Shown in pieces: positions 15,628 through 32,700 of a stretch of 64,000 bases of DNA (positions within the stretch are counted from its first letter, which is position 1; every line of letters starts with the position of its first letter). Origin of the DNA: Eledone cirrhosa (taxonomy: Eukaryota); NCBI GenBank assembly GCA_964016885.1, contig OZ024740.1:34100001-34164000 (forward strand), in the 5' to 3' direction. The notes under the pieces were generated by a model. That model did no database searches. It saw only the letters and a program-made list of their open reading frames with translations, and was not told the DNA's origin. The position numbers and the translations under genes were made by a program.

Positions 15628-15705
15628 AATTGCCTTGTCTGACGAACGAATGCGGTCGTTTCTTGTATACGTCTTATTCGGGAAACCTTTGGTAATGAGG
15701 TAATT
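15628..15705 (+). ncRNA. Type I hammerhead ribozyme, near-complete fold
   Basis: Stem I AATTGCCTTGT(15628-38)/ATGAGGTAATT(15695-705), 11 bp with G-U pairs. CTGACGA at 15639-45; stem II CGAAT/ATTCG; GAAA at 15682-85; stem III ACC-ttt-GGT; GTA cleavage triplet ending at 15694. Confidence 0.8.
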
Positions 15706-29171: not shown

Positions 29172-29499
29172 GAGTTTATATGTGCAAAAACACACCTAAA
29201 CTGTTGACAGAGGTCCCGAGATCTATTTATATACATTTATTGATGGGTTTGTAAGGGGTGGGTGAGTAAAAGTAGGTTCACGTTTAAAGTGTGAAAGATA
29301 AAGAATAAAAAATAAAGGATAAAAATATAAAAGGTAAAGAAAGTAAAAGGTAAAAAATATATAAACAAATATATTAAAAAAATATATTAAAAGGTTTAAA
29401 TAAAAATGGTAAATAAAGTAAAAAATATAAAAGGTAAAGAAACATATGTAAAAAGGTAAAGTGGAGTTAAAAAGATAACAAAAACAATGACAAAAATAA

Positions 29500-29818
29500 T
29501 TGTTTCTACTTTTGGCACAAGGCCAGCAATTAATCCAGTGTATTACTGGTACTTTATTTTATCGACCCCGTAAGGATGAAAGGCAAAGTTAACCTCGGCG
29601 GGATTTGAACTCAGAACACAAAGGGCCGTAACTCTTTGCTACCGATACTGCCAATCCACCGCCAAAACAAAAATAATGGTTTCTTATATAGGCACAAGGC
29701 CAGTAATTTCGTGGGAGAGGAAAGTCGATTAAATCGACACCAGTGTGAGACTGGTATTTTATTTTATCGACCCCTTAAGGATGAGAGGCAAAGTTAACCA
29801 CGGCGGGATATGAACTAA
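29500..29818 (-). mobile_element. Two tRNA-SINE copies
   Basis: Reverse complement of the same core as 11412-11740. Confidence 0.85.
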
Positions 29819-30159
29819 AAAAAAAAAATCAAATAATAAAATGAGAAATGAAATAAAATAAAACAAGAAAATTTACTGGTAAAGATGAATAATGATAATA
29901 ATGAAAATAGAATCGTAGAGAAAATTCTGAGTAAGCAGGGGTTATCTGGGTGAACAGGGAACCATCTCATCTCACCCCACAATTTTCCTGCGGAGAAAAG
30001 TCAGTTTTAAGCATCTTAGAGGTTGGATTAGTTGATAGCACATGACAAATTGGATGAAAACATTTTTTCTCACACAAATTGAAGGGGGTGTTGTATAATA
30101 TAAGCCACACCAAAATACACTTAACCATGCCAGAGAACAAGATGCAGAAGATGAAGACC

Positions 30160-31340: not shown

Positions 31341-31380
31341 AACCCTGATGAAGGGACTTTTAGGTCCCGAAATATTGGAC
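31341..31380 (+). ncRNA. Minimal hammerhead motif in a Penelope 3'-end remnant (31160-31520)
   Basis: cc-CTGATGA(31345-51)-a-GGGAC-ttttag-GTCCC-GAAA(31369-72)-tatt-gg, with palindromic AATATT at stem III. Confidence 0.65.
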
Positions 31381-31551: not shown

Positions 31552-31600
<49 letters not shown>

Positions 31601-31607
<7 letters not shown>

Positions 31608-32288
31608 TTAAAAAATAATGAATAAAACAATGAAACAGTTCCTTATATTAAACAAAAAAAGGTTCATTATTTAACGATCGTTTCTAGGATATATATGTGT
31701 TAGAATTGGCATGCATATTCAACAGATCTATGTACAAAATTATAGAAAATTATACAAACTATCAAAATTAAATATACATACCAACACATATATATGCCGT
31801 CTTCAGATTATTTCTGAAGACGGCATATATATGTGTTGGTATGTATATTTAATTTTGATAGTTTGTATAATTTTCTATAATTTTGTACATAGATCTGTTG
31901 AAACAGTTCCTTATATTAAACAAAAAAAGGTTCATTATTTAACGATCGTTTCTAGGATATATATGTGTTAGAATTGGCATGCATATTCAACAGATCTATG
32001 TACAAAATTATAGAAAATTATACAAACTATCAAAATTAAATATACATACCAACACATATATATGCCGTCTTCAGATTATTTCTGAAGACGGCATATATAT
32101 GTGTTGGTATGTATATTTAATTTTGATAGTTTGTATAATTTTCTATAATTTTGTACATAGATCTGTTGAATATGCATGCCAATTCTAACACATATATATC
32201 CTAGAAACGATCGTTAAATAATGAACCTTTTTTTGTTTAATATAAGGAACTGTTTCATTGTTTTATTCATTATTTTTTTAATATTTTA
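31601..32288. repeat. Compound palindrome with an internal 268-bp direct duplication, built from a hammerhead-containing unit
   Basis: Hairpin centres tcttcaga-ttatt-tctgaaga at ~31810 and ~32078, 268 bp apart. Outer ends aaaatatttaaaaaataatg / cattattttttaaatatttt are complementary. Confidence 0.95.
32075..32222 (+). ncRNA. Type I hammerhead with long stem II
   Basis: ATTATTT-CTGAAGA(32082-88)-cggcATATATATGTGTTG...TAACACATATATATcc-ta-GAAA(32204-07)-CGATCG-T-T-AAATAAT. Stem I is 7 bp; stem III is palindromic; the base of stem II is imperfect. Confidence 0.65.
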
Positions 32289-32420
32289 TCTTGACTCTGT
32301 ATTCCGTTTATCTTTCACCGAAAGTGATTTTTCATTGCATCTCTTCTTTCCATGATATCCGGATTACATTGAGTTCTTCATACGGATTGGACACTACCGT
32401 AAACTCTTGGTAGATTTATC

Positions 32421-32488
<68 letters not shown>

Positions 32489-32544
32489 TATATATATAAT
32501 TATTATTATAATTATTATATATATATAATAATTATATATATATG

Positions 32545-32700
32545 ATCTGAGTTCAAATCCCGCCGAGGTTTACTTTGCCTTTCATCCTTCCGGGGTCGAT
32601 AGAATAAAGTACCAGTAATGCATTGAGTAATTGCTGGCCTTGTGCCAAAAGTAGAAACAATTATTATTATTATTATTATTATTATTATTGTTATTGTTAT
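32545..32700 (+). mobile_element. 5'-truncated tRNA-SINE with (ATT)n tail
   Basis: Same core as the other SINE copies; the tail abuts the 3' end of the Dong element. Confidence 0.85.

Follow-up and report, generated by a model that had tools for sequence, protein, structure and literature searches.

Head-to-head insertions of a Penelope-like element in Eledone cirrhosa often turn at the first base of a hammerhead-like motif

Fold-back insertions of a Penelope-like element in the genome of Eledone cirrhosa turn preferentially at a single base, the first base of stem I of a hammerhead-like motif. One of them lies in the window analyzed here, a stretch of 64,000 nucleotides (contig OZ024740.1, positions 34,100,001 to 34,164,000; coordinates below count from its first letter), and consists of a Penelope-like pLTR inserted head to head, and with no ORF, into (TA)n. 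Judging from sequence, we consider it moderately probable that both target strands primed on one RNA, that both cDNAs ran off its likely capped start, and that a duplication of 268 bp likely came later. Published work is cited for the portions of its text that were available.

Results

Layout of the insertion

Positions in the pLTR are counted from q0, the first base of stem I, which is window position 32075 on the + strand. The features of the module are:

31554..31601, no strand: (TA)n target array, left, read from the sequence
31599..31807, -: short arm, pLTR q214 to q6, with the putative fixed short priming site at its outer end
31807..31812, +: turn 1, the same in sequence as turn 2
31807..31902, +: partial sense unit q0-q95 (q1-95 at 31808-31902), inside the duplicated block
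31631..31898, +: copy 1 of the 268-bp tandem duplication, across the hairpin axis
31899..31902, no strand: duplication joint, a 4-nt microhomology with 1 exact genome match
31899..32166, +: copy 2 of the 268-bp duplication
31899..32075, -: antisense q182 to q6
32075..32080, +: turn 2; q0 = 32075, first base of stem I and probable RNA 5' end
32075..32222, +: type I hammerhead-like motif (by motif, fold and pair counts), of predicted activity only
32075..32426, +: long arm, pLTR q0 to q348-351
32290..32426, +: tail on one side only, about 137 nt, between both putative fixed priming sites
32424..32485, no strand: (TA)n target array, right, read from the sequence

Read from the left, the module consists of antisense q214-q6, a turn, sense q0/q1-95, antisense q182-q6, a turn, and sense from q0/q1 onward. 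An earlier note, made from the letters alone, had given this order with a direct repeat of 268 nt (31631-31898 and 31899-32166, 100% identical), and the order stands except that the second antisense unit is also partial. Mapping places both turns within the 5' strand of stem I, in agreement with the note. The arms it took to be identical are indeed 100% complementary where they are inverted (177 nt and 90 nt, with spacers of 5 nt), but the outer arms differ at a single base, 31609. Nor does the module stop at 32288, as had been thought: the last sense arm continues to the insertion end at 32423-32426, about 137 nt beyond 32289, and (TA)n adjoins the insertion on both sides. (BLAST queries ended at 32420, and the long end at q348-351 was read beyond them.) Because both insertion ends lie in (TA)n, no target-site duplication is readable. 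A twin hairpin outside both insertion ends amounted to a weak likeness, equalled in score by 17 of 394 control windows.

Copies of one SINE-like repeat, which we take to resemble an octopus SINE, lie at 29475-29830 and 32540-32690. From about 32700 rightwards, on the - strand, runs a coding sequence with a (TAA)n tail, presumably that of a non-LTR retrotransposon with a restriction-like endonuclease.

Parent element and family

The unit in the window shares 93% identity with each of the two pLTRs of L033/L034, between which lies an ORF of 813 aa; the repeat unit of the full element is 6,560 nt, and its 3' UTR measures about 3.6 kb. The L033 protein (P0001) carries the motifs RWR, DKT, CxCX5C, CxxC and CxH together with a GIY-YIG-like region at the C terminus. 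Its RT and GIY-YIG domains were read from motifs, because searches of Pfam and PDB gave no match. L033 also combines a hammerhead with targeting of (TA)n. The motif set, the C-terminal GIY-YIG-like EN, the hammerhead and the (TA)n targets are all shared with the Hydra clade of C-terminal EN+ PLEs (PMC8557442), the one conservative change being RWR for RWK. Elements of that clade are described as 'generally <3 kb' (PMC8557442), whereas the unit here is 6.56 kb. By the match of its motifs, the element appears to be a Hydra-clade-like Penelope element, and the family may already be contained in the supplements of PMC8557442.

The insertion agrees with descriptions of inverted 5'-truncated pLTRs in having an adjacent inverted copy and a tail on one arm, though the tail is longer than described, and the earlier view of the locus as a young Penelope-like inverted pLTR insertion is supported. 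The tail motif occurs in 6,085 genome copies (pattern search) and the intact upstream junction in 3,645. Raw reads that run from the family's short end into (TA)n number 420; they support the short end of the family, not the window locus. The extension of stem II in L033 (5721-6216) contains a donor-like site, about 33 nt past q0, that recalls the 5' intron of Penelope.

The hammerhead motif

Stem I of the motif is formed by 32075-32081 with 32216-32222, followed by the core at 32082-32088, a long stem II (32090-32202), GAAA at 32204-32207 and a palindromic stem III to 32214, with the predicted cut at 32215|32216. The CUGANGA and GAAA core, the three stems and an NUH cut site are thus present, and the free pLTR folds to this topology. 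Across 22 sequences, 96.6% of stem cells are paired, with two-sided change in 1 pair only, and at H17 every one of the 22 has U or A. The motif departs from the canonical form in its stem II of about 113 nt, in an extra A ahead of GAAA, and in the absence of G10.1-C11.1 next to G12, the closing pair of stem II being non-canonical (G-U in 13, A-U in 6 and G-C in 3 of the 22 sequences). An Rfam search gave no hammerhead match, either at the gathering score or at E up to 10; its miRNA matches, every one below the gathering score, reflect the hairpin.

By a topology scan, the + strand copy with its core at 32082 is the sole hammerhead in the module, both minus-strand hammerheads having lost the 5' strand of stem I. 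The earlier picture of a long dsRNA with ribozyme cores on both strands survives in part: read-through of the module would be predicted to give such a dsRNA, but stem I is missing from two of the three cores.

At 31345-31372 (+), another repeat, with 38 exact copies, holds a second and minimal hammerhead motif. The 3' end of that repeat enters the same (TA)n array, and it is probably another Penelope-like family. A loose scan gave three more hammerhead-like matches, at 15639 (+), 27255 (+) and 7988 (-), those at 15639 and 7988 being alike.

A turn hotspot at q0

The 3' half of the hammerhead has 7,419 exact copies in the genome, and arm ends were read in the first 100 of these matches in positional order (71 regions), a sample that replaced an initial search biased by its query. 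With the window's three arms included and one arm reclassified by hand (owing to a mutated core), 43 arms end at q-1 to q8, 4 at q-14 to -6 and 13 at q19-q120, while 40 run on upstream. Ends per base come to 0.049 at the hotspot versus 0.0011, a ratio of about 45, and by locus the comparison is 28 versus 8 loci (p=1e-24). Genome-wide, the stem I pattern gives 988 fold-back turns against 4 for the control, so the clustering of inversion points at stem I, which the earlier note had proposed as a check, is strongly borne out. The genome has 25 occurrences of the window's exact turn, which fall in 24 loci and on 13 contigs.

The modal end is the A at q0 (18 of 47 ends, with 7 each at q1 and q2). 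This end is common to solo copies and to lopsided fold-backs in which one arm only reaches q0, and it is therefore a property of each cDNA rather than of the hairpin axis. At the turns of L094, L079, L010 and L110, the first 10-37 nt are reiterated at the junction (a 13-mer three times in L094), which suggests repeated re-priming at the RNA 5' end.

Origin of the q0 end

Both cDNAs would stop at q0 if the RNA starts there, at an Inr-like A served by a pLTR-internal promoter, as in Penelope (PMC2377424). The first base of the RNA would then also be the first base of the hammerhead, and the turn would mark the RNA start and not the ribozyme reaction. In L1 insertions, capped 5' ends are marked by an extra G (PMC11702581). 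Here a non-encoded extra G precedes q0 in 8 of 43 rows, compared with 18 of 258 further upstream (p=0.019), a comparison in which 6-7 of the 43 rows are not junctions and arms of one locus are not independent. By eye, the extra G stands at q-1 in 16 of 63 rows (3 of them templated) and at q-2 in 4, after 37 SINE-insertion rows of 100 were set aside and with a pattern that excluded C at q-1. The excess is a weak to modest sign of a cap, and most q0 ends are without the G. Contrary to simple run-off, 40 of the 100 arms extend past q0, and these need read-through, or a circular or transferred template.

Perhaps q0 is instead the 5' end of the downstream product of cleavage at a polyadenylation site, with twin priming and joining otherwise the same. 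In the full element, AATAAA lies about 9 nt upstream, CA occupies q-1/q0 and a GU-rich tract follows downstream; also, 7 ends fall at q1. However, a cut after CA predicts q1 as the mode, which is q0 (18 versus 7), and an uncapped end predicts no extra G. We think this origin unlikely.

A cut at the level of DNA, in which an endonuclease (the element's or another) nicks ATT at q0 and the cut ends are joined, has in its favor that q0-q2 is ATT, that a PLE endonuclease has a preference for 5'-ATT-3' close to the ORF-pLTR junction (PMC11167929), and that older copies carry a SINE inserted exactly at q0 with duplications of 3-17 bp. But the pLTR has many other ATT motifs without a pile-up of ends, the family's own insertions lie in (TA)n, the SINE goes into this type of site everywhere (41 of 60 insertions were seen elsewhere), and the extra G is left unexplained, all of which makes such a cut quite improbable.

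These SINE insertions, in an older subfamily (L218-L230), are about 180 nt long and entered both arms independently, sometimes twice, with the 3-17 bp duplications; AT-rich sites of similar kind carry the same SINE elsewhere. They also dispose of a supposed sister subfamily with homology ending at q0: its rows (37 of the first 100) are SINE insertions with target duplications.

Three further sources of the end were considered and rejected. Hammerhead cleavage does not supply it: among 73 tail-anchored arms, 45 have an intact cut site and none of the 28 others starts at q141, the nearest starts in these truncated or variant arms being q130 (twice) and q153. Nor is there an AG ahead of q0, which an intron acceptor at stem I of the kind described in D. 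virilis (PMC4209133) would require. Lastly, strand transfer between RNAs at q0 is at odds with a four-gamete test, which gave no excess of recombination across q0 (incompatible site pairs 114/644 across q0, 289/1035 upstream, where the alignment is noisy, and 11/91 downstream).

Two cDNAs or one

The outer ends of the arms fall at two fixed places, q212-214 (short) and q348-351 (long), about 137 nt apart, and a short arm is joined to a long one in 30 of 31 fold-backs, a set that does not count the window. The arms of one fold-back are identical in 17 of the 31 and differ by at most 1 position in 25, compared with median differences of 5-15 to other loci. Arms that match each other far better than they match the median other copy fit one RNA copied twice; two RNAs derived from a single source copy, or conversion, would fit as well.

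The earlier note had attributed the fold-back to template switching or snap-back priming at a ribozyme boundary, and a specific form of this idea is that the enzyme stalls at stem I on the ribozyme structure, after which one cDNA snaps back, twice at the window locus. Self-priming on an antisense template is its published relative (PMC3846280). The turn does lie at stem I, the arms are near-identical, the 5-nt spacer makes a feasible loop, and other turns show short reiterations. However, the arm with an intact q0 end can be assigned at 8 of the 9 loci that have the window's exact turn (the ninth is ambiguous), and it is the long arm at 3 and the short arm, with a long partner, at 5. Snap-back is impossible at those 5 of 9 loci, because a longer arm cannot be copied from a short cDNA. 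Spacer-free palindromes, seen by eye in 16 of the first 50 turns listed, likewise favor two joined cDNAs. At the window locus the intact q0 end is on the long arm, and so the locus taken alone would be compatible with snap-back, although its stop at the short site would then be chance.

The part assigned to the ribozyme fares no better. The q0 end is shared by solo copies, none of the 28 arms begins at the cut site, and a neighboring, older hammerhead family (a different family, of putative type) shows no fold-back at its motif among the 30 copies examined of 38, and in 29 of these the sequence continues through the motif. The enzyme, moreover, would have copied the partner strand before arriving at the 5' strand of stem I, and the second turn has its own explanation in the duplication. 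Stalling followed by snap-back thus seems to us very doubtful.

The second turn

When one 268-bp copy is removed, there remains a unit of 555 bp. Of 10 loci tried, 8 align with this unit over its full length, at 91-99%, and the other 2 in part. The joint of the duplication is a 4-nt microhomology unique in the genome. On this comparison, the second turn is likely a tandem duplication that copied the first turn and not a second event, so that the template switching need not have been 'repeated', as had been supposed. The duplication may have arisen by slippage, during fill-in or later, or else by assembly error.

That the extra block is an artefact of assembly or library, the fold-back itself being real, is compatible with the other readings and is somewhat unlikely in our judgment. 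The two copies are 100% identical, their joint is unique, the duplicated form is present in 1 of 71 regions, palindromes are hard to assemble, and no read or contig among the matches listed bridges the joint. On the other side, the microhomology is clean, smaller duplications occur at other turns (L010, L094), and a young insertion may be absent from other individuals.

Discussion

We favor twin priming with run-off at the RNA start. Another PLE has a protein, predicted to be dimeric, that nicks and extends both strands; two internal starts define its tail, and ribozyme cleavage is not needed (PMC11167929). In the insertions described here, each target 3'-OH would be extended by one RT of the dimer, one from the short site and the other from the long site, until both reach the end of the template. 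An extra C added opposite the cap could give the 2-nt microhomology that joins the cDNA ends in the window's type of turn, after which repair would fill in. It is possible, and we offer this tentatively, that insertion of PLEs of the Hydra-like clade proceeds by true twin target-primed reverse transcription, with a single capped RNA as template, the dimer starting about 214 and about 350 nt from the cap, with run-off at a strong stop at the first base of stem I and a cap-templated base aiding the joining.

In L1 twin priming, each cDNA covers its own part of the RNA, whereas here q0-q214 is copied twice. The two cases share priming at both ends, joins by microhomology, and an extra G at full-length 5' ends (PMC11702581). 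With Poseidon PAc in vitro, the family shares two internal RT starts, an uncleaved RNA template and the extension of both strands, but here the starts lie upstream of the ORF, about 137 nt apart, and the available text of that study does not address where the cDNAs end or join (PMC11167929). Non-LTR retrozymes are also short and non-coding, with a type I hammerhead and a tandem-looking repeat (10.64898/2026.07.22.740005). The 268-bp repeat, however, is an inverted block whose units do not each hold a complete hammerhead, and it is an accident of one locus; head-to-tail units that each have a complete hammerhead are absent from the module, and a retrozyme was accordingly rejected.

Inverted pLTRs, tails and junction palindromes are already in print for EN+ PLEs (PMC8557442, PMC3846280). 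The insertion in the window agrees with them in its head-to-head arms, junction palindrome, one-armed tail, and hammerhead and Inr-like motif within the pLTR; it differs in having no ORF and in its longer tail (about 137 nt, against 30-40). Neither a hotspot counted at a single site nor a near-strict pairing of short with long arms appears in the available portions of either source. PMC3846280 favors self-priming on antisense RNA, against which the junctions here argue. A literature search that covered few subscription papers found no paper linking the inversion point to the RNA start.

The window locus is an ordinary representative of its family and adds little, its double turn being likely a local duplication. 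The weight falls on the family: about 1000 junction fossils favor two joined cDNAs over snap-back and pinpoint a single base. The origin of inverted and tandem PLE insertions has been stated to be open (PMC8557442), and the one in vitro study of PLEs leaves the later steps unvalidated (PMC11167929); the family-wide hotspot makes this mechanistic question testable. If the proposed mechanism is true, then the inverted pLTR, the one-sided tail and the junction palindrome would together form the signature of one reaction, and copies that extend further would require either read-through RNA or a retrovirus-like transfer at the q0 stop.
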